DNA of 64,000 bases from an uncultured Dehalococcoidales bacterium (GTDB taxonomy: Bacteria; Chloroflexota; Dehalococcoidia; E44-bin15): contig CAYRYW010000003.1 in NCBI GenBank assembly GCA_964428725.1, forward strand, positions 2,465-66,464, read 5' to 3'. The first letter of the stretch is position 1; every line of letters starts with the position of its first letter. Shown one piece after another: positions 3,886-57,013 of this stretch. Position numbers and translations under genes: made by a program. The notes below the pieces were generated by a model. The model was not told the DNA's origin. It did not search any database and saw only the letters and a list, made by a program, of their open reading frames with translations.

Positions 3886-3960
3886 TGGAGCCAGCGGTCG
3901 GAATTGAACCGACGACCGGCGGTTTACGAAACCGCTGCTCTACCGCTGAGCTACGCTGGC
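3886..3960 (-). tRNA. tRNA-Thr (anticodon CGU)
   Basis: Reverse complement is GCCAGCGTAGCTCAGCGGTAGAGCAGCGGTTTCGTAAACCGCCGGTCGTCGGTTCAATTCCGACCGCTGGCTCCA. It has a 7-bp acceptor stem, D arm GCTC/GAGC, anticodon stem GCGGT/ACCGC with loop TTCGTAA, T arm GTCGG/CCGAC with TTCAATT, and an encoded CCA. Confidence 0.92.
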
Positions 3961-3969
3961 GCAGAAATA

Positions 3970-3998
3970 ATTGTATTGGGTGGATAGTAAGGTGTCAA
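3970..3998 (-). promoter_or_regulatory. Sigma70-type promoter for tRNA-Thr
   Basis: Minus strand reads TTGACA (3998-3993), a 17-nt spacer, then TACAAT (3975-3970), 9 nt before the mature tRNA 5' end. Confidence 0.55.
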
Positions 3999-5252: not shown

Positions 5253-5444
5253 CTAGTGCCAGAGCAGCTTTTTGAGGGTGATGATGATGGCTCCGCCTAT
5301 GAGAAGCACTCCTATGATGAAGAATATGATGATCGCCAGCCCGATCCACAGCGGGGAGGTGACCCATACCCAGCTCCAGTCAACAACGCCCACCATCTTG
5401 AGGATGACGAAGATGATGAATATAAAAGATAACGCGCTGAACAT
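5253..5444 (-). CDS. Small integral membrane protein (63 aa, 2 TM)
   Basis: MFSALSFIFIIFVILKMVGVVDWSWVWVTSPLWIGLAIIIFFIIGVLLIGGAIIITLKKLLWH. The longer ORF-track version (to 5837) overlaps the next gene in another frame and is Arg/Pro-rich non-coding-like sequence. Confidence 0.5.
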   Translation of the reverse strand: MFSALSFIFIIFVILKMVGVVDWSWVWVTSPLWIGLAIIIFFIIGVLLIGGAIIITLKKLLWH

Positions 5445-5458
5445 GGCATCACCTCGCT

Positions 5459-6391
5459 TTAAATGAAATTGTACAGCGCAACCACAACTATCACCACCAC
5501 CCACACAGCGCCCAGCGCCAGCGCGGGCAGCAGCCGGCTGGAGGGGCGCACATTGGCGTGGGATTCGTTCCATGCCTCGTGGTGCTTGCCCTGCCACTGC
5601 CACAACAGCCACGCTGCAATAGGATTCACCAGCAGGCTTATGGGCACAAGGGCTATAGCCGGGCCGGACAGAAGTGCGGGCAGCGCCAGCCAGAAGGCAA
5701 AGGCTAGGCACATCACGGCGATGGTGGGGAGTATGAGGAGGGGCCTGCCCAGCTTCTTCCAGTTGAGGCCGGCGACGATGCCGGCGGCGGCGAAGCCGCC
5801 GAGGAAGGACATCAGCAGCAGGGCGCCCCAGCCCCAAGGAGCCCTGGGTCCCGTCGCGGGGACGGCAGCCGGCCTGCGCTCCCTGCGCAGTTTCGCTGCG
5901 ACCTGTGCAAGCGCAGATGCCGGCTCAGGGCTGGCTTCGTCTGCGGGCTCGATTTTCTTACTGACAGGGGGTGGAGGCTCAGGCCTGGCCTGTTTCGGCG
6001 GCTCGGGCTCTTTCGCGACCTCCGCCGGGGGTTCGGGTTTGGCTTCTATCACAGATTCGATTATTTTATCGTCAGGTACAGGTGGCGCGGGCGCAGGTGC
6101 CTCCACCTGCCTCTGCTCTTTCTCGACATCAGCCGTCGGTTCAGGCTTTTTAGCGTCAGGGGGTGGAGGCTCAGGCCTGGCCTGTTTCGGCGGCTCGGGC
6201 GCTTTCTCGGCCTTCGCCGGGGGTTCGGCCTTAGCCTTTTTTGCAGGTGCGGGCCCGGCATCCCGCGGGGGTCGAGCACCCGTTCCGCCGGGCTCGAAGC
6301 AGGCGAAGGAATCGGCGAAATCCAGGTCCTTGCCCGCAGGGTTGTTGCGGCACCCGTCGGTGCGGAACAGCTTGCAGTCGGAACACTTCAT
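5459..6391 (-). CDS. Membrane protein with N-terminal Cys cluster, Pro/Lys/Glu-rich repeat linker and C-terminal multi-TM domain
   Basis: N-terminus MKCSDCKLFRTDGC...FACF. The linker contains EPPKQARPEPPPP twice. The C-terminal 130 aa contain 3-4 hydrophobic helices. Preferred over the opposite-strand 5463-6461 ORF, which is Ser/Gly/Ala low complexity. Confidence 0.6.
   Translation of the reverse strand: MKCSDCKLFRTDGCRNNPAGKDLDFADSFACFEPGGTGARPPRDAGPAPAKKAKAEPPAKAEKAPEPPKQARPEPPPPDAKKPEPTADVEKEQRQVEAPAPAPPVPDDKIIESVIEAKPEPPAEVAKEPEPPKQARPEPPPPVSKKIEPADEASPEPASALAQVAAKLRRERRPAAVPATGPRAPWGWGALLLMSFLGGFAAAGIVAGLNWKKLGRPLLILPTIAVMCLAFAFWLALPALLSGPAIALVPISLLVNPIAAWLLWQWQGKHHEAWNESHANVRPSSRLLPALALGAVWVVVIVVVALYNFI
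5965..6228. repeat. Two copies of a roughly 72-nt direct repeat, 192 nt apart, inside the Pro-rich gene
   Basis: 5965-6036 and 6157-6228 both read CAGGGGGTGGAGGCTCAGGCCTGGCCTGTTTCGGCGGCTCGGGC.CTTTC.CG.CC.TCGCCGGGGGTTCGG with few mismatches. This is an in-frame 64-codon duplication. Confidence 0.8.
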
Positions 6392-28817: not shown

Positions 28818-31800
28818 TTATGCGGGGGCCTTGGACACCGTCCTGCAGAACACCTCCACCAGTTCCGGGTCGAACTGGGTGCCGGCGCACCGGCGTAACT
28901 CCTCGATCGCTTCTTCGCGGGTCACTACTTCGCGGTACAGACGCTTCGTGGTCATCGTATCGTAGGCATCGGCTATGCTGATGATCCTTGCTTCCAGAGG
29001 TATCTCCTCGCCCTTGAGTCCGTCCGGGTAACCGCTACCATCGTACCATTCATGGTGGTGACGTATCATAGGTATGAGTACGGAAAGCTCTTTAACATAT
29101 CCGACTATCCTGGCGCCTTCCACTGGATGCTTCTTGATAATTTCGTACTCATCTCTGTCGAGCCTGCCGGGCTTGGTAAGGATGGCATCCGGAACGCCGA
29201 GCTTTCCTATGTCGTGCAGCAGGGCAGCGGCATACACATTTGCCAGCTTTCTGGCGGTTATGCCCGCCTCTCTGGCGACTGCCTCAGTGATGGTGGCCAC
29301 CCTGCTGGAGTGTCCATAGGTGTACGGGTCTCTGGCATCTACGGTGGCTGCCAGCGCATACACCTGGTCCCTTGTCGCCATGCTCAGCACCTCAGCCGAC
29401 AGGGTATCCAGGTGGGATACCGTAATGGTTTGATTGGCGCTTGTCCTCTTGGCGTGGTAAAGGGCAGCGTCCGCCAGGAATATCAGCCCGTCACTGGTCT
29501 CCGAGTTGTCGGGGAACTGGGCTATGCCGGCACTGAATCCAATCGGCCTTTCCTGGGAAAATTGTTTGGAAATGGGGGTCTTGAGCCATTTCCCTCTCAC
29601 CCGGTCCAGCACTGCAGCAGCCCTGTCGGACTCTGTGCCCGGAAAGATTACGGCAAATTCATCCCCGCCGTAGCGAAAAACCGTATCGCTTTTGCGCAGT
29701 GACGATTTCAGTATCTGGGCGATGGATCGCAGCACGGCATCGCCGCTGGTATGGCCGAACTGGTCGTTATACTCCTTGAACCCGTCGAGGTCCAGCATGG
29801 CTATGGAGAAGCATTTGCCGTAGCGCCTCATGCGGTGCATCTCGGTCTCAAGCTCATCGTAGAAGTGGCGGCGGTTGTACACGCCGGTGAGCTCATCGGT
29901 AACCGATAGCTCCCTTGTCCTTTGCATCAGTTCTGCATTCTCGATGCCGACTGCTATCTCGCTGGATGTTGCGCTGAGGAGACTCCTGTCGTCGTAGTCG
30001 AAATCACGCCGACTGTCAGTGGATACTGCGATTATGCCGCGCACTTCCCCCTTTATCACGATGGGGTTATCGATAAACCTTCTCTTTAGGCCTTTCGATG
30101 ATTCTATTTTAGTGTAGCCTGAGAGTGCCTCCCATTGATCTTCACTCGTCAGTTTGTGCAGCACACTCTGGAATTCAGAATCGGTCAATTTGATGGTTGA
30201 GAATTGCTCCTGGTATTCCCGGGACATCCCTACATGTGCTTCAAGCACAAGCTCCTGTCTTTCCATATCCAACAGGTAGATGTAACCCCGCTCTGTGCCC
30301 ATGACATCGCATACCTTTCTGATAGCGCTGTTCAGCATCTCGGATAAGTCCAATGACTGGCTCACTGCCTGTGCCACAGCATACAGCGCCCCCGTACGCT
30401 CGGCGTTACGCTTGATTTCTTCCTGTACGCGCTTGCGATCAGTGATGTCTCTGGTGATTACCGCCATGCCTATGGGCTCTCCGTTGGCATCGCGCAGCAC
30501 GGTAACCTTGCCCTCGCCCTCGGCGGTGCTACCATCCCTTCTCAGTATCTTATATTCCAGGGAAGCGCTGCGTCCTTCCCCCAGCGCCTGCATTATGGCT
30601 TCTATGGCGCCGGCACGGGATTCACTGGTGATGAGGTCGAGGCCTTTAAGCCCGATCATCTGCTCTTTGCTGTCGTAACCATGCAGGCGGGCCGTTGCCT
30701 CGTTGACTTCAATGATGGTTCCTGTGAGGTCGGTAATGACGATGCCATCGTCGATGGAGGCGAACGCAATCTGCAATTTTCGCTCCATTTCCTGAAATGC
30801 CTTCTGCGTCTGCTTCTCCACAGTGACGTCCCTGAATGAGACCAGTCCCGCCGGCTTTCCCTGATAGTCGATCACCGCCCCGACGGCGCTTATCCATTTC
30901 TCCTCGCCGTCCTTCGTCAGCGTGCGGAACTCGTTTGCCTGCCGCAGATCCTTCAGGAACATATCCTCTATCATGATACGGCGAACCTGTTCCCTGTCGC
31001 TTGCTGGAACGAAGTCGAGCGGGTCCAGGCCTATCGTCTGTTCCGGCGAATCGAACCTATAGATCTGCGCGGCGCGCCTGTTGCACAGCGCTATCTTCAT
31101 CGTTTCAGCATCGATAACGAAGACCCCGTCGATGCTGCCTTCGAACAGGTCCCTGTATCTCTCCTCGCTCTCGCGCAGTATCACATCTGCCAGCTTGGAG
31201 TCGGTGATGTCAGCGGCATAAACCTGGATACCGATGGCCTCATCGCCCGTCTTTAGCAGGGAGCTTCTGACTCTGATCCATCGCCGCTCACCATCCCTCC
31301 TGATTATCTCAAGGTCAAAGGGTTCGACCTTACCCCCACTCATAATTTTTTTGAACTGTTGCGCTAATTCGGGCTTGTCCCTCGCATCCAACGTCATAAG
31401 CTCGTCAAGGCGCTTCCCGATTATTTGAGCCCTGTCGTATCCTGTCAATTCCTCAGTGCTCTGGTTGCAATCGATAACCTTTCCTGTTAGGTCGATAACC
31501 GAAACGGAGATCGGCGCCTCATCGAATAGACTTCGATATCTCTCCTCGCTCACTGCTAATGCTTGCTCCGCTCGCTTGCGCTCGGTGATGTCGCGGGCTA
31601 TGCCCAGCTCGCCGATGACCTGACCGCCTGCCAAGATCGGGCTGCTGGTGAATTCACCGAATATGTAATCCCCCGACTTGGACTGAATCCGCATCTCGTA
31701 GGGCGGCGGATGTTCGCCACGGAGGGAGATTTCGAATGACTGCATGGCCCCGAGCAGGTCATCGGGGTGAACGATTCCAGCGAAGGACTTACCTATCCAT

Positions 31801-34800
31801 TCGTCACGAGACCAGCCGGTGACCTTATCAAAGGCCGGGTTCAACGAGGATATGGTGCCATCCGTCGCCAGTGTGTAGATCACGTCCGGCGCCATTTCGA
31901 TGAGTCCCCGGTATCTTTCCTCGCTCTCACGCAGGGCGTCCCTCGCGCGCTTGCGCTCGATTGCCCCTCCCAGACGATCTGAGACAGCGTTAATCAAATC
32001 CCACTCCTCCTTCAGGAAAGGCCCTTCATCGCCTGCCGACATCTCTTCCGTGTAGTACACCTCTACAGTGCCGACAGGCTCACCTCGAACGCGGATATCG
32101 CTGGACAGCTTCCACGGGGTTTCCCTGAAGTTACCCGTCCTGTACTCGGTCCCCTCGGAGAAGATACGGGCGCATACGCTGTCCGGGTGCTGAAATGCAG
32201 ACACGATAGCTTCAAGGATGTCATTGAACAGCTGTTCGGGTGTATCGTACTTGTGCGCCAGGACGGTGGATATCCCGTAGAGGCAATTCAGCTCTCTTAC
32301 ACGCTCATCGAGATCATGTATGAGATGTTCCCTCTCCATCTCCGCCAGTTTTCGTTCGGTTATATCCTGCACCGTCCCGAATAACTTAACAACGCGCCCG
32401 CTCTCGTCTCTGATCGGATGCATCGAGGCCGAGAATGAAGCTATTCTCCCACCCGGCAACTTCGCCTGCAGGTCGTACTCCAATTCTTCCCCGGTTTCCA
32501 TCGCCCGCCGCACGTATTCCCGCAGTATCGCCGCCTGCTCTTCGGAATAGTAGGTCGCCTCTTCCTCCGGCGTGGGTGGACCGAGTGACGGGTCTCGCTC
32601 GTATAGTTTATACACTTCGTCAGACCATTCGATCGTCCCGCGATCAACATCGAATTCCCAGTTGCCGATTCGCCCCAGCGCCTGTGCCTCCTTCAGCCTT
32701 CGCTCGCTCTCGCGCAGCGCCTCATCAGCCAGTTTGCGTTCGGTGATATCACGTATAATCGTGATAATCCCCACTGGCTTCCCTGAGGCATCGCGCAATA
32801 GAGCGGGGCGTAATTCACAATCGAACAGTTCACCATCCGCCTTTTTGAATTTATATTCGATCCCCTGTTCACTCGTGCCTTCTTTGATCATTTCCAGCGA
32901 ATCTTTGACCAATCTCTCCCGGTCTACATACGACACGAGCTCAAACGCATCTTTGTCCAGCAATTCGTCCTTGCTGTGCCGCGTTATACTGCACAGCGCA
33001 TCGTTCATGCTGATGATCTCTCCTTCCATATCAGTTACGATCACGCCATCCACCATAGATGCGAATATCAGGCGCAGTTTCTCCTCATTCTCGCGGATTG
33101 CCTCCTCCGCCAGTTTGCGCTCGGTGACGCTCGATATGATCCTCGAGATTGCGAGGAGAAGGTCAACATCTTCAGTGGGCCAGTCGCGATGCTGGCGGCA
33201 CTCGTCAAACCCGATGAAGCCATGATAATGTCCACCGACAAAAAGTGGGACCACCAGGATTGAACGGACTCCCTGGGGCCGCAGGATCTCCTTTGCCCCT
33301 TCATCCGGGATGTCCTCTATGTCTCGGAAACAGATATTCTGTCCCTTCCGGAGTGTTTCCACCCACCATGGAGCGTTGCTGACTGGTATCCCCTGCAGGC
33401 CCTGTTTTTGAGGGAGGATGCCTTCGGCGCACCACTCCTGAGTGTTGACCATGGTATCTGTCTCAGGGTGATGCTCAAAGAGGTAAGCGCGGCTTACTGC
33501 CATTGTCTGTCCCATGGCGGCGATGCATGTGTCCTGGAACTGCTGCAGGTCCTCCGCGTCTACCGCCAGCGAGGAGATGCGGGAAAGCAGTTGTTCGTAT
33601 CCCAGCCTTCTCTGTATGGTCTCCTGCGCCAGCTTTTGCTCGGTGATGTCAGTTAAGATGCCACGTGTGCCGATAACCAGTTCCCCTTCGTATATTGGCC
33701 GGTTGGAGGCGCGTATCCAGTGGATCGCACCTGACTTCGCGATAACCCGATATTCGCCTATAGTTGACTCTCCGGAGAGGACCCTCTGGTGGCTTTCAGC
33801 AGCAGTTCTCAGATCATCTGGGTGAATGTACCCGGCAAAGTTCTGCCCGATTATTTCCGCAGGCGTGTATCCTATCAGCGATTCCACAGCCGGGCTAATA
33901 TATGTGAATGTTCCATCTGTATCGATGGTGTAAAGAACGTCGTTTATGTTCTCTACGAGGTCGCGGTATTTCTCCTCGCTGGCTCTGAGCGCCTCCTGCG
34001 CCCGCTTCTGCTCCGTGATGTCCCGCATGGCGCCGATGTAGCCGGTCGCGTTGCCTGAAGCATCGTGCAGCATGGCTATGCTGAACTCACCATCCAACTC
34101 CGTACCGTCTGCAGTCAGCATGGGGAGCTGAATACGGTTGATGAATATACTGCCTTCTGCCGCCTTCGCCATGAGCTTTGCTGCTCTATCACGGTCCCTT
34201 GTGGCGACGAAATTGAGCGCGCTTTTTCCTATGAGGTTCTCTTTACTGTAGCCTGTTATGCGGAGGGTAGCCTCATTTACCTCCAGGACATTGCCGCTCA
34301 GGTCCACCACTATCAGCCCCTCGGTGGTGGAGTCGAAGATGGTCTGCAGCTTTTCCGCTGTCTCCCGCAGCGCATTCTCAGCCTCCCAGCGGTCGGTATC
34401 ATCACGGATGTTCATGATGAAGCCTTCAATGGATGGATGGTCTAAGAGATTCTTCCCCAGTCCATCGAAGAAGCGCACCGAGCCGTCTTTGTGCAGTATG
34501 CGGAATGCATTGGGGATCGCTGTATCTTTGGTCAGGATAGCTTTGCCGAAATCGACAATAGCGCGTGGGATATCATCCGGGTGGATAAACTCAAAACCGC
34601 TTCTACCCATTATTTCTTCAGGCTTGTATCCAGTAAAACGCTGGATGGAAGGGCTGCAGTATGTAATGATTCCATCTTTGTCAGTGACGATTATGATATC
34701 AGAAGAGTTCTCGGTAATTTCCTTGAAATACTCTTCGCTCTCTCGCAGCGCCTCTTCCATCTTAGTGCTCTCGGTAATGTCCTTAACAGTGCCAATCATC

Positions 34801-35579
34801 TTATACGCTTTCCCATCCTTATCAAGAAGCGCTGTCCCCCTATCTGCCCAGAAAGCGATACTGCCGTCTTTCTTGGTAACTCGATATGTGACGTCATAAG
34901 GAGTTTGATCTAAAATGTGTTTATCAAGCAAAGCCATAACCCTATCGTGGTCTTCCGGATGAATGATATTTGCCCATGCGTCGATCGTTCTGGGGAATTT
35001 ACCCTGTGGGTATCCCAATAACGAGTCAATGTCGCCAAACCAATCCAGGGAAGCCTTCTCGATGTTCCATTCCCAGATACAGTCGCTTGTGCTTGATGCA
35101 GCTACGTGGAAGCGTTCCTCGCTCTCCCGCAGCGTCTCCTCTGCTTCTGCCAGCCTCCTCTCCGTGTCCAGTTCCTGTAATACGCGCTCCACCGCCTGCG
35201 GCAGCCGGTCGAGGAAGGTGGCATCCTTCACCAGATAATCGCGCGCGCCGAGCTTCATCAGCTCTACCGCTATCTTCTCATCCCCCAGCCCGGTGGTTAC
35301 GATGAAGGGGATTGTATGTTTCTGTTCGGCTAAGGTTTCGATAACACTGATGCCGGTCATATCGGGCAGGCGGTAGTCCAGCAGAGCCAGGTCGAAACGG
35401 CCACCAGCCACGCGGTCTATGGCATCGGCGCCGGTGAGCGCTATCTCCACCCCGAGGCCGAGGCGGCGGAGGTTTCTGTGGAGCAGCTTGGACAGAGCCT
35501 GATCGTCCTCTATGATCATAACTGTTTGGGACTGCTGCGGCTCGCCCGTGCTGCTATTTCTTAGTTTCTTCTTCTCCAT
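28818..35579 (-). CDS. Giant multidomain response regulator: REC - 4xPAS - GAF - 2xPAS - GAF-like - 4xPAS - GAF - GGDEF - HD-GYP (2253 aa)
   Basis: REC with acceptor Asp in LALLDYRLPDM. Ten roughly 125-aa PAS units each begin with an LRESEE(R/K)(Y/F)-type linker and end in DIT(E/D)RK. GGDEF domain RYGGDEF has an RKSD I-site 5 residues upstream. HD-GYP domain has HDIGK ... HHHEWYDGSGYP. Confidence 0.9.
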   Translation of the reverse strand: MEKKKLRNSSTGEPQQSQTVMIIEDDQALSKLLHRNLRRLGLGVEIALTGADAIDRVAGGRFDLALLDYRLPDMTGISVIETLAEQKHTIPFIVTTGLGDEKIAVELMKLGARDYLVKDATFLDRLPQAVERVLQELDTERRLAEAEETLRESEERFHVAASSTSDCIWEWNIEKASLDWFGDIDSLLGYPQGKFPRTIDAWANIIHPEDHDRVMALLDKHILDQTPYDVTYRVTKKDGSIAFWADRGTALLDKDGKAYKMIGTVKDITESTKMEEALRESEEYFKEITENSSDIIIVTDKDGIITYCSPSIQRFTGYKPEEIMGRSGFEFIHPDDIPRAIVDFGKAILTKDTAIPNAFRILHKDGSVRFFDGLGKNLLDHPSIEGFIMNIRDDTDRWEAENALRETAEKLQTIFDSTTEGLIVVDLSGNVLEVNEATLRITGYSKENLIGKSALNFVATRDRDRAAKLMAKAAEGSIFINRIQLPMLTADGTELDGEFSIAMLHDASGNATGYIGAMRDITEQKRAQEALRASEEKYRDLVENINDVLYTIDTDGTFTYISPAVESLIGYTPAEIIGQNFAGYIHPDDLRTAAESHQRVLSGESTIGEYRVIAKSGAIHWIRASNRPIYEGELVIGTRGILTDITEQKLAQETIQRRLGYEQLLSRISSLAVDAEDLQQFQDTCIAAMGQTMAVSRAYLFEHHPETDTMVNTQEWCAEGILPQKQGLQGIPVSNAPWWVETLRKGQNICFRDIEDIPDEGAKEILRPQGVRSILVVPLFVGGHYHGFIGFDECRQHRDWPTEDVDLLLAISRIISSVTERKLAEEAIRENEEKLRLIFASMVDGVIVTDMEGEIISMNDALCSITRHSKDELLDKDAFELVSYVDRERLVKDSLEMIKEGTSEQGIEYKFKKADGELFDCELRPALLRDASGKPVGIITIIRDITERKLADEALRESERRLKEAQALGRIGNWEFDVDRGTIEWSDEVYKLYERDPSLGPPTPEEEATYYSEEQAAILREYVRRAMETGEELEYDLQAKLPGGRIASFSASMHPIRDESGRVVKLFGTVQDITERKLAEMEREHLIHDLDERVRELNCLYGISTVLAHKYDTPEQLFNDILEAIVSAFQHPDSVCARIFSEGTEYRTGNFRETPWKLSSDIRVRGEPVGTVEVYYTEEMSAGDEGPFLKEEWDLINAVSDRLGGAIERKRARDALRESEERYRGLIEMAPDVIYTLATDGTISSLNPAFDKVTGWSRDEWIGKSFAGIVHPDDLLGAMQSFEISLRGEHPPPYEMRIQSKSGDYIFGEFTSSPILAGGQVIGELGIARDITERKRAEQALAVSEERYRSLFDEAPISVSVIDLTGKVIDCNQSTEELTGYDRAQIIGKRLDELMTLDARDKPELAQQFKKIMSGGKVEPFDLEIIRRDGERRWIRVRSSLLKTGDEAIGIQVYAADITDSKLADVILRESEERYRDLFEGSIDGVFVIDAETMKIALCNRRAAQIYRFDSPEQTIGLDPLDFVPASDREQVRRIMIEDMFLKDLRQANEFRTLTKDGEEKWISAVGAVIDYQGKPAGLVSFRDVTVEKQTQKAFQEMERKLQIAFASIDDGIVITDLTGTIIEVNEATARLHGYDSKEQMIGLKGLDLITSESRAGAIEAIMQALGEGRSASLEYKILRRDGSTAEGEGKVTVLRDANGEPIGMAVITRDITDRKRVQEEIKRNAERTGALYAVAQAVSQSLDLSEMLNSAIRKVCDVMGTERGYIYLLDMERQELVLEAHVGMSREYQEQFSTIKLTDSEFQSVLHKLTSEDQWEALSGYTKIESSKGLKRRFIDNPIVIKGEVRGIIAVSTDSRRDFDYDDRSLLSATSSEIAVGIENAELMQRTRELSVTDELTGVYNRRHFYDELETEMHRMRRYGKCFSIAMLDLDGFKEYNDQFGHTSGDAVLRSIAQILKSSLRKSDTVFRYGGDEFAVIFPGTESDRAAAVLDRVRGKWLKTPISKQFSQERPIGFSAGIAQFPDNSETSDGLIFLADAALYHAKRTSANQTITVSHLDTLSAEVLSMATRDQVYALAATVDARDPYTYGHSSRVATITEAVAREAGITARKLANVYAAALLHDIGKLGVPDAILTKPGRLDRDEYEIIKKHPVEGARIVGYVKELSVLIPMIRHHHEWYDGSGYPDGLKGEEIPLEARIISIADAYDTMTTKRLYREVVTREEAIEELRRCAGTQFDPELVEVFCRTVSKAPA

Positions 35580-37510: not shown

Positions 37511-37707
37511 CTTTCACCGCTCTTGAGAATACTTGAGACGACTTACATGGATGATAATATAACCATACAAATAGTTGAGTGGGGGTACTTATGTACACAA
37601 CCTGTCTGTCGTGCGTTATCGCCCGGTGTTCTGTAGTTTTGAGTCACCACCTTTCGGCGGTTTTAGCTTTTTATATATTTATCGAAAATATATAGTTAGA
37701 GTGGTGT

Positions 37708-37736
37708 ATATTATCACTGCAGAATCTGTATGTCAA
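37708..37736 (-). promoter_or_regulatory. Sigma70-type promoter for the HTH-kinase-REC-giant RR unit
   Basis: Minus strand reads TTGACA (37736-37731), a 17-nt spacer, then TAATAT (37713-37708). This predicts a roughly 190-nt leader before ATG 37510. Confidence 0.5.
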
Positions 37737-37751
37737 GTGCCCTGAACAGGC

Positions 37752-38450
37752 CTAGTCTTCATCTTCCCCGGAGGCACCGCAGGCCCGGCAGAACGCCTCC
37801 ACCAGCACAGGGTCGAACTGCTTCTCTGAGCACCACCTCAGCTCCTCAAGCGCATCCTCCTGTGACAGCACCTCACGATAGCCACGCGGCGTGGTCATGG
37901 TATCGTAGGCGTCGGCTATGCACAGTACCCTGGCGCCGAGGGGTATGGCCTCGCCTTTCAGTCCGTCGGGGTACCCCGTGCCGTCGTACCGCTCGTGGTG
38001 GTGCCGTATCAGGGGCACCAGCGGCGACAGTTCCTTCACGAAACCGACTATCCGTGCCCCTTCAGCAGCATGTGTCTGCATTATCTTCCACTCTTCGCCC
38101 GATAGATTATCGGGCTTGGTCAAGATGGCATCGGGTACGCCTACCTTGCCGATGTCGTGCAGCAGGGCGGCGTCGCGTAAATCGGACAGCTGTTTCTCGG
38201 AAAGGCCTGCGGCTTCGCCGATCGTCTCCGCTATCTCGGCAACACCCTTCGAGTGGGTGAGGGTATACGGGTCTTTGGCATCCACCGTTGCCGCCAGGGC
38301 GATTATCTGGTTCCGGGTCGCGGTGGCCAGCACCTCCGCCGGTATCATCTCCACATGACCGGCGACAGCCGAATCCACCTCGGCGACACGCCTGCGCATC
38401 TCCACCAGCTCAGCTATAAGTTGCTCTTTGGTCTTATCCTCATCTTTCAT
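37752..38450 (-). CDS. Stand-alone HD-GYP domain protein (c-di-GMP phosphodiesterase family) with N-terminal coiled coil
   Basis: HDIGKVGVPDAILTKP ... RHHHERYDGTGYPDGLKGE.IP ... ADAYD.M. Aligns nearly colinearly with the C-terminal 200 aa of the giant protein. Confidence 0.88.
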   Translation of the reverse strand: MKDEDKTKEQLIAELVEMRRRVAEVDSAVAGHVEMIPAEVLATATRNQIIALAATVDAKDPYTLTHSKGVAEIAETIGEAAGLSEKQLSDLRDAALLHDIGKVGVPDAILTKPDNLSGEEWKIMQTHAAEGARIVGFVKELSPLVPLIRHHHERYDGTGYPDGLKGEAIPLGARVLCIADAYDTMTTPRGYREVLSQEDALEELRWCSEKQFDPVLVEAFCRACGASGEDED

Positions 38451-38604: not shown

Positions 38605-38973
38605 TTACCTTTCCAGCACCACCTCCAGAGTTTCCAGAAGATCCCCTGTATTTATCGGCTTGGTGAGGTAAGCCGCTGCCCCGCAGTTCATGGCGCGTAT
38701 TGTATCCTCTGTAGACGTGTGGCTAGAGAAAACCACCACCAGCGTTTCCGGGTAAGCTTTTTTCATGCGTGCTACCAGCTTCAAGCACTCGTCTTTATGT
38801 TTGTCAATATCGACCAGGGCAAGCTTAAAGCGTCCGGCACGCGCCTTCTCCATCGCTTCTTTACTGTCCCTGACTGCCTCTACCTGATATCCTTTACTGG
38901 AAAGTGCCAGCGCCAGGCTGCGTCTTAAGCCTTCATCGTGTTCAACAATTAGAATGCCTTCTATCTTAACCAT
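38605..38973 (-). CDS. Single-domain response regulator (receiver)
   Basis: ILIVEHDEG ... LALVDID ... VVVFSS ... YLTKP. Start moved to ATG 38973 to avoid a 44-nt overlap with the upstream cyclase gene. Confidence 0.8.
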   Translation of the reverse strand: MVKIEGILIVEHDEGLRRSLALALSSKGYQVEAVRDSKEAMEKARAGRFKLALVDIDKHKDECLKLVARMKKAYPETLVVVFSSHTSTEDTIRAMNCGAAAYLTKPINTGDLLETLEVVLER

Positions 38974-39001
38974 CTCCAACACCCCCTTCACAAGCCTTTC
39001 T

Positions 39002-41614
39002 TCAATCGCTGAATCCGGCAATATCATGCTGAGGTTCACTCTCATGTTGCTCCAGCCTTGAAGCCAGCTCCGTCCTGTATTTACCTCCCCTTTTCGCCTT
39101 CATCAGGGCGGCATCGGCCATGAATATCAAACCGTCAATGGTGTCTATATCCTCGGGGAACTGAGCGATACCGGCGCTGAACCCCAGAGGGGTTTCCAGT
39201 GTGAACGAAATATCTTTCGATGTGGAGGGCCATTGTGCCCTGACCCGTTCGATAATCTTTTCCGCCCTTTCGACATTTGTTGATGGGAAGATAATGGCGA
39301 ACTCGTCACCTCCGTAACGGAAGACCGGGTCGGTTTTCCGCAGCATTGATTTGAGGGTCCGGGCGAAATCTTTCAGCACTTCATCACCGCTGATGTGCCC
39401 ATATATATCGTTGTACAGTTTGAACCCGTCGAGGTCGACCATCACCAGACAGAACGTATGTCTGTAGCGACGCGAGCGGTTCATTTCAGACTCGAGCACT
39501 TCGTAGAAATGGCGGCGATTGTACGAGCCGGTCAGCTTATCGGTTATGGATAGCTCGCTCAGCTTTTCCATAAGCTGGGCGTTCTCGATAGCGACCCCTA
39601 TCTGCCCCCCTATCGTTTCCAGCAGACGGATGTCTTTTTCAGTGAAATCCCTGGGTTCGCGGTCGAAGATATTCATAACTCCCAGGGTTTTGCCTTTTGA
39701 CCTGAGTGGCACGCTGACAAGTGCCCTGAGGTCGCCGAGGCGATAAACCGATTTGAGAGCATGCGGGATCCTCACATCGTCCAGCATATTTGTAGACATT
39801 GTCACCTTGCCTGTTTTCGTAGCCTCACCGGTGACGCCTGCACCCAGGGGAATCTCCCTGGCAGCCGTTGCGACTCTCTCACATACTCCCTTGTGAACGG
39901 TGAGCGTCAGCTTCTGGCTCTCCTCATCGATCAGCCATATGCCTCCGGCAGGCAAGTCCATAACTTCAAGGGTGGAATCCAGTGCAGACTGCAATAAGTC
40001 ATCCAACCTCGACTGCTGGCTGAGCGATTGCGAGATGGTATTCATGGCGATCAGTTCCCTGTTGCGCTGTCTCACTACTTCCTCTGCCTGTCTGCGTTTG
40101 GTAACATCGCGGGCGATGGTAACGAACTCTGACACATCGCCAGATTCATTCATCAGCGGCGATGAGCTGAATTCAGCTTCTATCTCTGTGCCGTCGGCCC
40201 GTACAAAGCTGCACTGGAACTGTTTTAAACCAGACTTATCCTCAAGGTTTTTACGCATCTGCTGTATGATCATGTCATGATCCCGGGGTGCTATAAGCGA
40301 GATGGCATTCCGCCCTACCAGTTCCTGCTTAGAATAGCCTGATAGTTCAGGTGCTACGTCGTTGACCTCCAATATATTGCCAGCCGAATCTGTAACAATG
40401 ATAGCCTCGCCTACTGACTCGAACATGGTGCGCAGCTTTCCCTCCGATTCTCGCAGTGCCTGCTCCTGGCGCTTGCGCTCAGTGATGTCGCGGGCGATGC
40501 CCAGCACGCCCATGACGCTGCCGGCGGCATCGCGTATCAGATTGATCCCATATTCTACTTCCAAATCACCGCCACTTGCCGTTCGCAGATGCAGATACTG
40601 GTACTCCGGCCCGTCCGCATGCAGTCCCTTCTTGATCGCCTCAACTGCCATCTTTACAGCATCATCGCGGTATGCCTCAACCACGAGCTCCGCGCTGCTT
40701 CGCCCGATAAGCTCCCCCTCATTCTTATATCCCAGCGTGCGCACTGTTGATTCATTCACATCTACAACGTCACCCTTCAGATCCATTGCCACGATCATGT
40801 CGCCCATCGATTGGAACATGAAGCGCAGCTTTTCTTCTTTCTCCCTTATCTCCTGCTCCATCCGCTTGCGCTCAGTGATATTGGCTACAATTGCCCTGAT
40901 GCCTATAATATTGCCCTCGTCATCTATGACATGGCTTCCATGGATGGTGATGGGAAATCTGCTGCCGTCCTTCCGCAGTGCGGTGGCTTCAATTATGCGC
41001 GGAAGCTCTCCGGACATGGCTCGGTGCATCTCAGCTAAGATTTTGTCCCCGTCCTCAGGTGCGACCATCTGAACGGCGTTAAGGCCAGCGTTGAATTCCT
41101 CATGCGTGTACCCGAAGGTCTGGAATGCGATTTCATTGGCATATGAAATGTTCCCTTGCCCGTCAATCTCGATGACTATCTCCGGCAGGGACTCGAGCAG
41201 ATTTCTGAATTTCTCCTCTTTTCCCCGTAGCGCTTCTTCTACACCCTGGCGCTCGATGGCATATCGCAGGGCGCGCACCAGCAGGCCGCTGTTTGTTTGG
41301 CCCTTGGCGAGATAATCTTGTGCCCCGTGTCGCACAGCTTCCAGTGCGAACGCCTCATCGGCGAATCCGCTCAATACTACAACGGGGGTTGCAGGTGACT
41401 GGTCACGTATTTTTACGAACGTGTCCAGCCCGTGGCTGTCCGGTAACGAGAGGTCCAGCAGGACAACGTCTACAATCGTCTCGCCGAGGCATTTGAGGGC
41501 TGCTTCCAGGCTCTCCGCGTGCAACAACTCGAACTGCCCGGTCGCCACTTCGCTGAGCATTTCCTTGATCAGCCTGGCGTCCCCCCGATTGTCCTCTACC
41601 ATCAGAACTTTCAT
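39002..41614 (-). CDS. Response-regulator diguanylate cyclase: REC - 3xPAS - GAF - GGDEF (870 aa)
   Basis: REC (VLMVEDN.GD...VVLLDLSLPD), three PAS units, GAF, and GGDEF (RYGGDEF) with an RKTD I-site 5 residues upstream. Confidence 0.9.
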   Translation of the reverse strand: MKVLMVEDNRGDARLIKEMLSEVATGQFELLHAESLEAALKCLGETIVDVVLLDLSLPDSHGLDTFVKIRDQSPATPVVVLSGFADEAFALEAVRHGAQDYLAKGQTNSGLLVRALRYAIERQGVEEALRGKEEKFRNLLESLPEIVIEIDGQGNISYANEIAFQTFGYTHEEFNAGLNAVQMVAPEDGDKILAEMHRAMSGELPRIIEATALRKDGSRFPITIHGSHVIDDEGNIIGIRAIVANITERKRMEQEIREKEEKLRFMFQSMGDMIVAMDLKGDVVDVNESTVRTLGYKNEGELIGRSSAELVVEAYRDDAVKMAVEAIKKGLHADGPEYQYLHLRTASGGDLEVEYGINLIRDAAGSVMGVLGIARDITERKRQEQALRESEGKLRTMFESVGEAIIVTDSAGNILEVNDVAPELSGYSKQELVGRNAISLIAPRDHDMIIQQMRKNLEDKSGLKQFQCSFVRADGTEIEAEFSSSPLMNESGDVSEFVTIARDVTKRRQAEEVVRQRNRELIAMNTISQSLSQQSRLDDLLQSALDSTLEVMDLPAGGIWLIDEESQKLTLTVHKGVCERVATAAREIPLGAGVTGEATKTGKVTMSTNMLDDVRIPHALKSVYRLGDLRALVSVPLRSKGKTLGVMNIFDREPRDFTEKDIRLLETIGGQIGVAIENAQLMEKLSELSITDKLTGSYNRRHFYEVLESEMNRSRRYRHTFCLVMVDLDGFKLYNDIYGHISGDEVLKDFARTLKSMLRKTDPVFRYGGDEFAIIFPSTNVERAEKIIERVRAQWPSTSKDISFTLETPLGFSAGIAQFPEDIDTIDGLIFMADAALMKAKRGGKYRTELASRLEQHESEPQHDIAGFSD

Positions 41615-41627
41615 GTGATTCTCCTTC

Positions 41628-42104
41628 TTATTTTGATGGGAGCTTTACCATGGTCAGCCAGAAATTATCAATGGCAGTAATAACATTTACGAAATCCTCG
41701 AAATCTATCGGCTTTTTGATATAGCAGTTGGCATGACGCTGATACATGTTGAACACATCCTCCGCCGCGCTCGATGTCGTCAGTACCACCACCGGGATGC
41801 GCCTCAGCGCCTTATCGTTCTTAATCTCCTCCAGCACCTCACGCCCATCCTTCTTCGGCAGATTCAGGTCCAGCAGTATGAGGTCCGGGGTTGGTGCATT
41901 GTTGTACTTGCCCTGATGATTTAGGAAAGCCAGAGCTTCAGCGCCGTCTTCAACGACGTTCAAACTGTTGGTGCCCCTGCTCTCTTTGAACGCCTCGCGT
42001 GTCAGCCGCACGTCGCCGGGGTTATCCTCCACCAGCAGGATATCGATAGCGTTGTCCGGATGGTGGGGCCTCATTCTGCAGTTCGTAGTTTGCGTAGCGT
42101 TCAT
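41628..42104 (-). CDS. Single-domain response regulator (Rcp1-like receiver)
   Basis: ILLVEDNPGD..L..EAF, LILLDLNLPKKDG.EVL..IK......IPVVVLT.S......YIKKP. GAGGAGG upstream of ATG 42104. Confidence 0.85.
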   Translation of the reverse strand: MNATQTTNCRMRPHHPDNAIDILLVEDNPGDVRLTREAFKESRGTNSLNVVEDGAEALAFLNHQGKYNNAPTPDLILLDLNLPKKDGREVLEEIKNDKALRRIPVVVLTTSSAAEDVFNMYQRHANCYIKKPIDFEDFVNVITAIDNFWLTMVKLPSK

Positions 42105-42163
42105 TGTCCTTTGCCTCCTCTATCTCTTCCCTGAAACCCTGTTATTAAAATCCGATTAATCCT

Positions 42164-42466
42164 TTATTTTCTGCGATCACTGCTTCGTCTCTCCCCCAGC
42201 CTCTTCCACTGGAGTGCGAAGACGGTGGCGGAATATATTATTACAGCAGCTGTCGCTATGATTTCTATGTATAAGATTGCCGAATTAGGTTCCTCGAAAC
42301 ACACCTCTCCATGTATCAGGATCAGTATCATATGAATACACCAGGCTATGGCTGTTGCGATCAGGAGCAGTTGGGCTGCCAGCACCGACATGGAAAACCT
42401 GAACCTTCTATTGAATCGCCTGCTATCAGCCGAACTGCCTTGCTGGTCACCCCTTCTGTCGTTCAT
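42164..42466 (-). CDS. Small two-TM membrane protein
   Basis: ATG 42466 with GGAGG 7 nt upstream. Basic N- and C-termini flank two hydrophobic helices. The ORF-track start 42526 lacks an RBS. Confidence 0.5.
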   Translation of the reverse strand: MNDRRGDQQGSSADSRRFNRRFRFSMSVLAAQLLLIATAIAWCIHMILILIHGEVCFEEPNSAILYIEIIATAAVIIYSATVFALQWKRLGERRSSDRRK

Positions 42467-42550
42467 GTTCAGATCCTCCAGATTTTTTTGTTCTGTGGGT
42501 GGGGTCCCCGGGTGGGGACCCCACATGCCACAGCGTCGGTGAATCGTGGA

Positions 42551-43972
42551 CTACTTATACCATCTCCTTTGAACCATTCGCCTTGCCAGCAGATAGGATA
42601 CTGCTACCAGGCCAAGGGCTTCAGCAGTTATAGCGCCAAGGACCCACCAGCTCACACGCGTAGCGGTGTCCGCTTCGACTGTCCCCTCGCCATCTTCGGT
42701 AGCATCTTCAGCTCCATTGCTTATCCCGGCCTCACCGCTGGTCGGCTCACCGACTTCTTCGGCGGCCTCCTCGGCGGCTTCTTCGGTGACATCAGACGCT
42801 TCTTCTTCAGCATCATCTGCCACATCTTCGGTGTCGCTGCTGCCACTTGGAACATAACCACCGCCACCGCCACCGCCACCAACATATGCTATCCGCGTCG
42901 CAGTCGGCGTGGGTGTTGGTGTCGGCTCGATAACGATGGTCAACGTCGGCGTCGGCTCAACGACAACGGTCTCGGTAGGCGTTGGCGTCGGCTCAACGAC
43001 AATGGTCTCCGTTGGAGTGGGCGTTGGCTCAGGCGGGAAGCCGTAATGCAGTATGGTGCCAGCATCGCCTACAACGAAGATATCGGTTTCAGAGGTTCCA
43101 TGGATGCCCAGCAGGTCCACGCCGGTGGAGGTGTCAATAGATGACAGTTTGCTGCCATCATAGTGAACTATAATACCTCCATCTGCCACACCAAACATGT
43201 TGGATATAGAATCTCCCCATACATCGTAGATCACTGCTGTTTCTCCGATCATTAGCGTTTCACACTCTCTACCATCGTAGTATATTACGATGGCGACTTC
43301 ACCTGCGGCGACTTCACCTACAGCAACAACGCTGATAGGTGAAAAGCCCCAAACGCCATACAGGTTGTCGCTAGTTCCACTGTCGATAAGCTCTATGCTT
43401 GACCCATCGAATGCAGCGAACAAACCATTATAACCAACTGCAAAGACGTCGTATGGGGAGTATCCCCAAACATCATAGAAGCACACCATGCCGCCCTCGC
43501 CCATTTGCCAGTCGCTGCCATCGTAGTGCGCTAGAAAAGTGTGACCTACTACGAATACCTGTGATGAATGGCACCAGACGCCATACAGCGCCTTCGTGGT
43601 GCCCAGGTCGATAGCGTTCCACGAGCTGCCGTCATAGTGCAGGACAACGCCATTGATGCCGACGGCGTAGACGTCAGTGGATGAGGACCCCCAGATGCCA
43701 TGGAGGTCGCTGGTAGTGCCGCTGTCCATCTGACTCCAGCTGTTGCCATTGTAGTGAAGGATGGTACCCTCCTCACCAACGGCGAAGACGTCGGTGGGTG
43801 AAGCCGCCCACACGTTTGTGAGGGCATTCGTTGTGCCGCTGTCCATGGTGCACCATTGCGGTGGTGCAACGGCTGCTTCGGCACCGGTCATGGGTGCCAC
43901 CATCGCCATGGAAACCGCTACTATTACAGCGGCTACAATAATACCTAATTTAATTTTTGTCTTAGCGAACAT
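42551..43972 (-). CDS. Secreted/cell-surface beta-propeller repeat protein with Thr/Pro-rich stalk, poly-Gly, acidic segment and C-terminal TM anchor
   Basis: Signal-like N-terminus MFAKTKIKLGIIVAAVIVAVSMAMVAPMTGAEA. About 8 repeats of W...DSGTT..L.G(V/I)WG.S..DV(F/Y)AVG..G.(I/V).HYDGS.W. Stalk EPTPTPTETIVV x3, then GGGGGGGG, a D/E-rich segment, and a terminal TM plus RRMVQRRWYK. Start set at ATG 43972 (GGAGAAGGAGG 7 nt upstream). The 14 extra codons of the ORF-track start lie in the riboswitch. Confidence 0.8.
   Translation of the reverse strand: MFAKTKIKLGIIVAAVIVAVSMAMVAPMTGAEAAVAPPQWCTMDSGTTNALTNVWAASPTDVFAVGEEGTILHYNGNSWSQMDSGTTSDLHGIWGSSSTDVYAVGINGVVLHYDGSSWNAIDLGTTKALYGVWCHSSQVFVVGHTFLAHYDGSDWQMGEGGMVCFYDVWGYSPYDVFAVGYNGLFAAFDGSSIELIDSGTSDNLYGVWGFSPISVVAVGEVAAGEVAIVIYYDGRECETLMIGETAVIYDVWGDSISNMFGVADGGIIVHYDGSKLSSIDTSTGVDLLGIHGTSETDIFVVGDAGTILHYGFPPEPTPTPTETIVVEPTPTPTETVVVEPTPTLTIVIEPTPTPTPTATRIAYVGGGGGGGGYVPSGSSDTEDVADDAEEEASDVTEEAAEEAAEEVGEPTSGEAGISNGAEDATEDGEGTVEADTATRVSWWVLGAITAEALGLVAVSYLLARRMVQRRWYK
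42921..43032. repeat. Tandem 30-45-nt repeats encoding the (V)EPTPTPTET(I/V)V stalk
   Basis: GTCGGCTC(G/A)A(T/C)(A/G)ACGA... units start at 42921, 42951 and 42987. The adjacent (GGTGGC)n at 42858-42881 encodes poly-Gly. Confidence 0.8.
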
Positions 43973-43991: not shown

Positions 43992-44073
43992 GATTTCGGT
44001 AACCCATCCGCCATAGTTTTGCTATGGAGTACAGGCTTTGCGCACCCGCTTTTCAGCAGGTTTGCCTTTGTCG
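43992..44073 (-). promoter_or_regulatory. c-di-GMP-I (GEMM-I) riboswitch aptamer, copy 3 (abuts the SD of the propeller gene)
   Basis: Minus-strand RNA CGACAAAGGCAAACCUGCUGAAAAGCGGGUGCGCAAAGCCUGUACUCCAUAGCAAAACUAUGGCGGAUGGGUUACCGAAAUC. It has GGCAAACC, a GAAA-capped hairpin (CCUGCU/AGCGGG), GCGCAAAGCC, a second hairpin (CCAUAG/CUAUGG) and GGGUUACCGA, in the same order as V. cholerae Vc2. It ends 1 nt before GGAGAAGGAGG. Confidence 0.8.
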
Positions 44074-44120
44074 ACTCAATTGTGCTATCCTACCACCTCC
44101 TTTGATGTCGATCCGTTTTT

Positions 44121-44157
44121 TAATAAGAACGCCTTCAAGGGTCCACATGAAGGCGTT
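44121..44157 (-). terminator. Hairpin terminator following aptamer 2
   Basis: RNA AACGCCUUCA-UGUGGACCCU-UGAAGGCGUU (10-bp perfect stem) followed by CUUAUUA. The U-tract is weak. Confidence 0.5.
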
Positions 44158-44173
44158 AAATAATAGCTCGTAT

Positions 44174-44257
44174 GATTCGGTAGCCTGGGCCCACAGTCAT
44201 AATAGCTGTGGGTCACAGCTTTGCGTCACCACCTTCAAAGTGGATTTGCCTTTGTCG
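44174..44257 (-). promoter_or_regulatory. c-di-GMP-I (GEMM-I) riboswitch aptamer, copy 2
   Basis: RNA CGACAAAGGCAAAUCCACUUUGAAGGUGGUGACGCAAAGCUGUGACCCACAGCUAUUAUGACUGUGGGCCCAGGCUACCGAAUC. Contains GGCAAAUCC, hairpin CCAC../..GUGG, GACGCAAAGC, the 7-bp hairpin CCCACAG/CUGUGGG, and CUACCGAA. Confidence 0.8.
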
Positions 44258-44280
44258 TTCCTAATTATTTTTTAAGGTAC

Positions 44281-44319
44281 AAAAAAGCGCCCTTCAGCAG
44301 AATTCTGCTAAAAGGCGCC
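44281..44319 (-). terminator. Strong intrinsic terminator following aptamer 1
   Basis: RNA GCGCCUUUUAGCAG-AAUU-CUGCUGAAGGGCGC (14-bp stem including G-U pairs) followed by UUUUUUG. Confidence 0.8.
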
Positions 44320-44337
44320 ATAACTAACTTCTCGAGT

Positions 44338-44418
44338 CTTCGGGAGCCCGGCTTTTCCACGTATATCTGGATGTCCGTGGCTTTGCGCCACTGCCTTCTA
44401 GCAGATTTGCCTTTATCG
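44338..44418 (-). promoter_or_regulatory. c-di-GMP-I (GEMM-I) riboswitch aptamer, copy 1 (promoter-proximal)
   Basis: RNA CGAUAAAGGCAAAUCUGCUAGAAGGCAGUGGCGCAAAGCCACGGACAUCCAGAUAUACGUGGAAAAGCCGGGCUCCCGAAG. Contains GGCAAAUC, hairpin CUGC/GCAG, GGCGCAAAGCC, hairpin CCACG/CGUGG, and a CUCCCGAAG tail. This is the most divergent of the three at the 3' end. Confidence 0.7.
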
Positions 44419-44473
44419 ATGCCTTTATTTGTTTTTAAGGAGCTTTATAATATTCAATCTTTAGTATGCTCTA

Positions 44474-44502
44474 ATTATACACCTTAATTGCTGTTTTGTC
44501 AA
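44474..44502 (-). promoter_or_regulatory. Consensus sigma70-type promoter driving the riboswitch leader
   Basis: Minus strand reads TTGACA (44502-44497), a 17-nt spacer, then TATAAT (44479-44474). Both hexamers are perfect consensus. Predicted TSS is near 44467, about 50 nt before aptamer 1. Confidence 0.65.
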
Positions 44503-56789: not shown

Positions 56790-57013
56790 ATAGGGTACCT
56801 CCTTAATTGCAAGCCAAGCTAAATTATCCCGTCAGCAGAGGGGTTTGTCAAGGATAGAGCCCTGCGCTCAAACGTGTTCGCTGCTGCCAAATAGCTCTAA
56901 GAATGGCTATAATATGTTTGCACAAATCAGCCGTGCTATGGTATATTTTTAATCGGCACTTTGTGAAATATTCTAACAATATTAACAACAGTAAAGGAGG
57001 TTAACCTGACGAC

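Follow-up and report, generated by a model that had tools for sequence, protein, structure and literature searches.

We analysed a 64,000-nucleotide (nt) stretch of DNA (the window) from a Dehalococcoidia/Chloroflexota-like uncultured bacterium, in which a 511-nt leader (43992-44502, minus strand) precedes a beta-propeller gene and a set of genes for cyclic di-GMP (c-di-GMP) enzymes. An earlier note on this DNA had proposed that the leader carries three GEMM-I aptamers on the minus strand. When Rfam 15 was searched with the complete window (cmscan), exactly three matches to RF01051 (c-di-GMP-I, GEMM-I) emerged. They lie on the minus strand, and each exceeds the gathering score of 35: aptamer 1 at 44421-44339 (51.4 bits, E 3.9e-07), aptamer 2 at 44260-44176 (40.3 bits, E 2e-04) and aptamer 3 at 44076-43995 (50.5 bits, E 6.7e-07). 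Each match is full length (model positions 1 to 87). The three are packed into a 430-nt stretch, with none elsewhere in the 128 kb of strand searched, and the sole other Rfam hit in the window was a tRNA. The unit coordinates proposed earlier lie within 3 nt of these boundaries, and the proposal is thereby confirmed. We conclude that the leader holds three independent class-I c-di-GMP riboswitch aptamers, each predicted from its sequence to bind c-di-GMP.

In every copy, two hairpins are joined by the junctions AAAGGCAAA, (G/A)CGCAAAGC and CCGAA together with a short closing helix. The ligand-contacting bases G20, A47 and C92 (Vc2 numbering; PMC5888326, PMC11218506) are present in all three copies according to the model alignments: the G20 equivalent is the unpaired G before the GC pair, the A47 equivalent the first A of the AAA following CGC, and the C92 equivalent the C preceding the closing CG. 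The two-hairpin fold of the family was recovered as the single-sequence minimum free energy (MFE) structure of each copy without any family information, the MFE z-scores being -1.96 for aptamer 2 and -2.6 for aptamer 3. The copies are diverged paralogues (mean column identity 76%) with differing distal helices. In their alignment, 93% of cells in the alignable helices were paired, compared with 27-49% in slid controls.

The copies differ in their loops. Aptamer 1 has a non-GNRA loop (AGAA) and the junction GGC-GC-AAAGCC, and aptamer 2 a non-GNRA loop and the junction GAC-GC-AAAGCU. Aptamer 3 is the only copy with a GNRA loop, the GAAA tetraloop already read there in the earlier note; its 11-nt receptor is not recognisable. 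A CUAA/UAUG tetraloop receptor was found in none of the three copies, and the model's CUAA positions are gapped in all of them in the RF01051 alignment. Given a single GNRA loop among the three and no receptor, the copies resemble type-2 members; docking of a GNRA loop into its receptor defines the type-1 subtype and not the GEMM-I family as a whole. Vc2-type (type 1) members carry the CUAA/UAUG tetraloop-receptor motif, which none of the window copies possesses. Judged by the Rfam consensus, the window copies have the same junction sequences and the same G20/A47/C92 pocket as Vc2 (from the Vibrio cholerae VC1722 leader), which serves as structural reference for GEMM-I. Copy 3 also shares with it the GAAA tetraloop and a position abutting the ribosome-binding site without an intervening terminator.

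The arrangement is conserved in one relative. L206, a 13.4-kb metagenomic scaffold from a related uncultured bacterium, carries a homologue (P0143, 42% identity) of the cyclase encoded downstream of the window array and shares synteny with the window; its genes run in the order beta-propeller, small protein, REC-PAS-GAF-GGDEF, HD-GYP and MerR-like. The first of these genes is 55% identical to its window counterpart and has the same architecture. Upstream of the L206 operon lie RF01051 aptamers at 5378-5455 (53.2 bits), 5544-5622 (45.7 bits) and 5712-5797 (54.2 bits), and the order aptamer-terminator-aptamer-terminator-aptamer is kept behind the same TTGACA-N17-TATAAT promoter. The two leaders show 74% column identity, with the aptamers and terminator arms conserved. 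The earlier note had named covariation of the stems at a related locus as a check, and the helices proved to be kept through compensatory changes. In an alignment of ten aptamers from the window and L206, which came from a model built on the three window copies and searched over both loci and which, being fitted to that model, favours the structure, 92% of cells were paired (23-44% in slid controls) and 6 of 15 pairs were altered on both sides, a result reached by none of 500 shuffles.

L206 holds further elements of this family. At 5840-5924 there is a fourth, marginal aptamer scoring 35.0 bits, exactly the gathering score, with C at the G20 position; it lies within a 126-nt insertion between in-frame AUGs at 5831 and 5957. 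A second tandem array, a doublet (1080-1163 and 1375-1453), is situated upstream of a PAS histidine kinase operon. The first aptamer of this doublet reads AAUAGCAAA, in which the G20 position is taken by A. This is the signature of GEMM-Ib aptamers that sense 3',3'-cyclic GMP-AMP (cGAMP), and the doublet could, from its sequence, serve as a two-ligand gate.

Searches for additional relatives yielded little. Among GTDB species genomes, no cyclase orthologue closer than 41% identity was found, and a search for beta-propeller homologues gave at most 48% identity, four of the loci concerned (L082-L085) having different contexts and no Rfam hit. GEMM-I was likewise absent from L210 and L211 and from three loci with fused GGDEF-HD-GYP homologues (L207-L209). 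When metagenomes were scanned for three spaced AAAGGCAAA motifs, the hits were for the most part chance matches; L127 alone was real, and is an unrelated canonical doublet. At 90% identity, each of the operon proteins is a singleton.

A sigma-70-type promoter, TTGACA-N17-TATAAT, is present at 44474-44502 (minus strand) ahead of all three aptamers and matches the consensus at 12 of 12 positions, as had been claimed for the region upstream of copy 1. Its counterpart in L206 (5305-5333) has the same -35, spacing and GTGTATAAT. Transcription is predicted to start near 44467. Sites of this form with at most one mismatch number five in the window against 0.07 expected. The other four, each with one mismatch, are at 1665-1693, 3970-3998, 31420-31448 and 56823-56851, all on the minus strand, and one of the four is directly upstream of the tRNA at 3889-3960. 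Because the consensus is enriched and in one case directly precedes a tRNA, the organism uses this promoter type, and near-perfect TTGACA-N17-TATAAT sites should be useful promoter markers for this genome.

Copies 1 and 2 had each been credited with a stem-loop terminator of their own. Beyond aptamer 1, an intrinsic terminator at 44281-44319 (minus strand; 15-bp stem 44319-44286 and a U6 run) was called by the terminator scan and has a folding energy of -26.1 kcal/mol (z -6.7). Beyond aptamer 2, a terminator-like hairpin (AACGCCUUCA...UGAAGGCGUU) is indeed present at 44122-44157 (minus strand), with a 10-bp stem-loop at 44157-44128, the tail CUUAUU and an energy of -14.5 kcal/mol (z -3.5). The sequence of this second hairpin is conserved in L206, where the orthologue is followed by a better U-tract, UUUUCAUUUUUU. 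From a start near 44467, the terminated RNAs are predicted to be about 187 and 346 nt long, instead of the 150 and 320 nt or so anticipated earlier. In units 1 and 2 the terminator stems share no nucleotide with the aptamers; they begin 20 nt beyond aptamer 1 and 18 nt beyond aptamer 2, so that aptamer and terminator can coexist.

The 5' arm of terminator 1 (44319-44302) is also the partner of a possible antiterminator. The strand UCUGCUAGAAGGC (44405-44393, minus strand), which comprises the 5' strand of the first hairpin of aptamer 1, its loop and the start of its 3' strand, can pair over 13 contiguous bp with GCCUUUUAGCAGA (44316-44304). MFE folds of stepwise longer nascent transcripts were computed unit by unit. 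For unit 1, the aptamer was the MFE structure at 44339; once the 5' arm was out (to 44302), the MFE structure was the antiterminator, made up of these 13 bp and of GCCG of the second hairpin paired with UGGC; and after the 3' arm it was the aptamer plus terminator. Unit 2 followed the same course up to the antiterminator. At full length its antiterminated fold stayed the MFE structure (-47.5 versus about -41 kcal/mol), with the 5' arm on the first hairpin of aptamer 2 and the terminator 3' arm also paired with the AAAGG region. The gain from pairing arm and aptamer was -15.4 kcal/mol in unit 1, which none of 500 shuffled arms reached, and -9.3 kcal/mol in unit 2, reached by one of 500; on a second shuffle measure the corresponding counts were 0/500 and 5/500, with 1/500 for unit 2 of L206. 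The complementarity between arm and aptamer in units 1 and 2 is unlikely to have arisen by chance. Unit 2 of L206 showed the same nascent-fold trajectory, and in unit 1 of L206 the arm pairs instead with the CCGAA tail of the aptamer. An RNAduplex comparison of the aptamers with downstream segments was too permissive to interpret, and when the 511-nt leader was folded in one piece, long-range pairings without clear meaning appeared.

Downstream of aptamer 3, a ribosome-binding site (GGAGAAGGAGG, 43990-43980) and an AUG (43972-43970) can be read on the minus strand, and the AUG at 43972 is also the start in the gene call of a public assembly. That copy 3 abuts the Shine-Dalgarno sequence was borne out; the CCGAA tail ends at 43995, 4 nt ahead of GGAGAAGGAGG. 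The ribosome-binding site is predicted to be unpaired whether aptamer 3 is folded or unfolded. A terminator for unit 3 was looked for and not found, and a 4-bp CUCC/GGAG option for sequestering the site was rejected as it is not conserved in L206. Alignment of the two leaders showed a conserved ACCGAAAUCAG...AAGGAGG after aptamer 3.

Between terminator 2 and aptamer 3 lies a Shine-Dalgarno-like 10-mer, AAAGGAGGUG (44094-44103, minus strand), which recurs identically at the equivalent place in L206 (5686-5695) amid poorly conserved flanks. Its complementarity to the 3' end of 16S rRNA, as seen in L206, is perfect. There, AAAGGAGGUG is followed after 7 nt by an AUG-UGA start-stop; no AUG stands at this place in the window. 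The motif CUCCUUAAAAA in the 5' leader (44432-44442, minus strand) is complementary to the downstream AAGGAG, and related CCUUAAAAA motifs follow terminator 1 in the window (44267-44279, minus strand) and in L206 (about 5524-5534). The full-leader MFE fold pairs CUCCUUAAAAA with the ribosome-binding site across 450 nt, a pairing that may have a meaning or none.

As had been proposed, the array heads an operon encoding c-di-GMP enzymes. The product of gene 1 (42551-43972, minus strand) is a beta-propeller-repeat protein of 473 aa, secreted or anchored, that has a signal/anchor sequence and a C-terminal membrane anchor besides its beta-propeller-like repeats and linkers rich in Pro and Thr. The protein has no Pfam hit; its homologues are named as WD40/YVTN/BNR-like repeat proteins. 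Genes 2-5 (38605-42526, minus strand) were assigned by Pfam and motif search to a small membrane protein, a REC protein, a GGDEF cyclase and a second REC protein. The cyclase (41614-39002, minus strand; 870 aa) has the architecture REC-PASx3-GAF-GGDEF, with an intact GGDEF motif at residue 768 and an RKTD I-site at residue 759. An HD-GYP protein follows (37752-38450, minus strand; Pfam HD_5, 1e-37), with HD at residue 98 and GYP at residue 159. Intergenic gaps among the first five genes range from -44 to 59 nt and, along the operon, the only terminator called on its strand, at 39310-39296 within the cyclase gene, is a weak consensus match of 5 bp. Genes 1-5 would be co-transcribed; the 154-nt gap before the HD-GYP gene leaves its membership uncertain, and it is probably co-transcribed with them. 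Control of c-di-GMP enzymes by riboswitches of this kind has been called rare (PMC6366702).

Further downstream are a histidine kinase, a REC protein and a 2253-aa REC-PAS-GAF-GGDEF-HD-GYP protein. The gene for the last (28818-35579, minus strand), which encodes REC, about eight PAS, GAF, GGDEF and HD-GYP domains, closes a c-di-GMP signalling cluster of some 15 kb (28.8-44 kb), adjoined by ClpC and a RadA-like gene. The window ClpC shares 79-81% identity with proteins attributed to Dehalococcoidia or Chloroflexota metagenome-assembled genomes, in agreement with the Chloroflexota-like origin suggested in the earlier note.

The explanation that we favour, and regard as probable, is that the leader contains three c-di-GMP aptamers, of which the first two act as OFF gates in series and confer negative feedback. 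At low c-di-GMP, the nascent 5' arm of each terminator would invade the unliganded aptamer and form an antiterminator, allowing RNA polymerase to read through. In unit 1 the arm would engage the 5' strand and loop of the first hairpin together with part of the 3' strand of the second hairpin, and in unit 2 it would engage the first hairpin, with the terminator 3' arm additionally on the AAAGG region. Bound c-di-GMP would lock the aptamer and leave the 5' arm free, so that the terminator would form and transcription would stop at about nt 187 or nt 346. Read-through would require both gates to be ligand-free, and repression should therefore be steeper than a single switch would give. Aptamer 3 would constitute a third checkpoint whose output could be on translation, RNA stability or Rho. 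Because the operon encodes a GGDEF cyclase, probably an HD-GYP phosphodiesterase, response regulators and a surface beta-propeller protein, the net logic would be negative feedback on c-di-GMP synthesis.

The assignment of units 1 and 2 as OFF switches in series, in which we place roughly two-thirds confidence, follows from terminators that lie clear of the aptamers and from terminator 5' arms complementary to aptamer strands, which is the layout of Cd1. This c-di-GMP-I element of the Clostridioides difficile flgB leader is a transcriptional OFF switch in which ligand favours termination; aptamer and terminator coexist, and both compete with an antiterminator composed of an aptamer strand and the terminator 5' arm (Sudarsan 2008; Landgraf 2022, PMC9262584). 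In the computed folds, units 1 and 2 likewise appear to combine a compatible aptamer and terminator with an antiterminator between arm and aptamer. Cd1 differs in being a single unit, the function of the window units being predicted, and in building its antiterminator from the 3' stabilising strand of the aptamer, whereas units 1 and 2 would use mainly the first hairpin (5' strand and loop). Use of the 3' tail, as in Cd1, is seen only in unit 1 of L206.

Several points weigh against this explanation. The direction of control is drawn from thermodynamic folding of nascent RNAs, and in unit 1 the aptamer plus terminator is the MFE state even without ligand, so that read-through there would depend on kinetics. 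The tail of hairpin 2 is a poor U-tract, and the consensus terminator scan did not call this hairpin. The pairing of the arm in unit 1 of L206 was not significant in a shuffle (partition) test (382/500), nor was that of either aptamer of the other L206 array (108/500 and 84/500 shuffles). Folds with aptamer 3 free or enforced revealed no ligand-dependent change in the accessibility of the ribosome-binding site, and no conserved helix sequestering that site of gene 1 was found. Moreover, only a single orthologous locus (L206) was found, and c-di-GMP more often switches surface or adhesin-like genes on.

The last point bears on a different possibility, that the array is an ON device in which terminators form by default and are prevented by c-di-GMP, so that the surface protein and cyclase would be induced at high signal. 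If so, the circuit would provide positive feedback and bistable commitment. The precedent is Bc3-5 of Bacillus thuringiensis CT-43 (Zhou et al. 2016), the only c-di-GMP-I triplet to have been characterised and correctly mentioned in the earlier note. Here, overlap of each terminator with the aptamer 3' strand (C92, P1 and P3) makes all three units ON switches (PMC4759541). The resemblance of the first gene to a surface protein, a typical c-di-GMP-induced function, would fit such a device, as would the most stable full-length state of unit 1, in which aptamer and terminator stand together and termination could be the default. In an ON switch, however, terminator and ligand-bound aptamer must rule each other out, and neither unit 1 nor unit 2 has a terminator stem sharing the C92, P1 and P3 strand in the manner of Bc3-5 or pilM. 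A linker sequence usable as a ligand-dependent antiterminator was looked for and none was found, and the significant complementarity is that of the terminator 5' arm with aptamer strands, which ligand would remove, favouring termination. We consider ON control unlikely.

In other respects the window array is similar to Bc3-5. Both have three complete class-I, Vc2-type aptamers with the same pocket bases in one 5' untranslated region, units in series with their own terminators ahead of a surface-protein operon, and an arrangement expected to give a more digital response. They differ in that the window terminators are separate from the aptamers and predicted to be OFF, whereas those of Bc3-5 overlap and are ON. 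In addition, the third window unit has no terminator, the window copies are diverged and those of Bc3-5 near-identical, the window host is Chloroflexota-like and that of Bc3-5 belongs to the Bacillota, and the window operon contains c-di-GMP enzymes.

A variant of the serial OFF arrangement assigns a separate role to unit 3. Two OFF terminators would be combined with a translational platform of a kind not yet described, in which closure of the terminal helix of aptamer 3 brings the conserved 10-mer AAAGGAGGUG and the downstream ribosome-binding site together. To such mixed logic we attach little probability. Were ligand to activate unit 3, expression of the operon would be confined to a limited range of c-di-GMP concentrations, amounting to a band-pass filter on a cyclase/phosphodiesterase operon.

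It might also be supposed that only one or two copies still work and that the rest are decaying duplicates without regulatory effect. Copy 2 scores just 40.3 bits, the canonical tetraloop receptor is missing from every copy and aptamer 3 has no recognisable expression platform. A degenerate GEMM-I-like relic elsewhere in the window indicates, besides, that decay does occur in this genome. All three copies nonetheless keep the pocket bases and the conserved junctions, L206 has above-threshold aptamers at all three positions despite leaders only 74% identical, and compensatory changes maintain the helices; decay of any of the three is, in our judgement, rather improbable.

That one or more of the aptamers sense another ligand, be it cGAMP as in GEMM-Ib or the ligands of the GGC or UAU variants, and so form a multi-input logic gate, is more improbable still. 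The GGC-variant model RF03167 does match copy 3, and position 20 varies among the relatives, being C in the fourth aptamer of L206 and A in the first aptamer of its other array. The RF03167 match, however, falls short of the gathering score (46.9 bits against 59), and copy 3 has A in place of the diagnostic G at position 47, so the c-di-GMP-I-GGC assignment was rejected. GEMM-Ib was rejected too, its signature A at position 20 occurring in none of the copies, which all have G20 along with A47 and C92. Finally, chance resemblance in an AT-rich spacer holding no riboswitch is effectively refuted by three full-length matches over a curated threshold within 430 nt and by conservation of the array, with covariation, in L206.

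The earlier note had considered a triple array unusual. The array itself is well supported, with one conserved orthologue, but its rarity was overstated. A survey of tandem c-di-GMP-I riboswitches counted 347 doublets and 12 triplets, more tandem examples than any other class of riboswitch has, and reported no quadruplet (Sherlock et al. 2022, PMC9481103). With 12 triplets already published, the locus is a further example of a known arrangement and opens no new class of regulator. With terminators in units 1 and 2 and no platform found for unit 3, it would belong with the catalogued tandems as a pseudo-cooperative array with multiple expression platforms, from which L206 departs by its possible fourth aptamer. 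What would set the window array apart is its predicted OFF-OFF logic, its Chloroflexota-like host and its control of a c-di-GMP enzyme operon. The predicted serial OFF gates contrast with the ON behaviour of the only characterised triplet. If the prediction is true, the leader would be a compact RNA-based homeostat for the second messenger and a natural test case for the sharpening of repression by tandem OFF switches.

The relic mentioned above is a degenerate GEMM-I-like element at 37589-37681 (minus strand), with a promoter-like TTGACA-17-TAATAT at 37708-37736 (minus strand), and sits upstream of a small MerR-like open reading frame and a PAS histidine kinase gene. Its first hairpin, with a GAAA loop, and the flanks are recognisable; the closing GC/GC pairs are disrupted (GCUAAA...GACUCAAA). 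With Rfam it scored 25.3 bits (E 0.021 in a local search), short of the gathering score of 35, and the second hairpin was aligned as deleted (37677-37629). The model built from the three window copies likewise gave 25.3 bits, with E 8e-05 and a full-length alignment (37681-37589). The element could represent a riboswitch in decay or a variant that has diverged. Unrelated to the riboswitch array, a match to PYLIS_3 (pyrrolysine insertion sequence) was observed at 3860-3959 of L207, inside an mttB-like gene.

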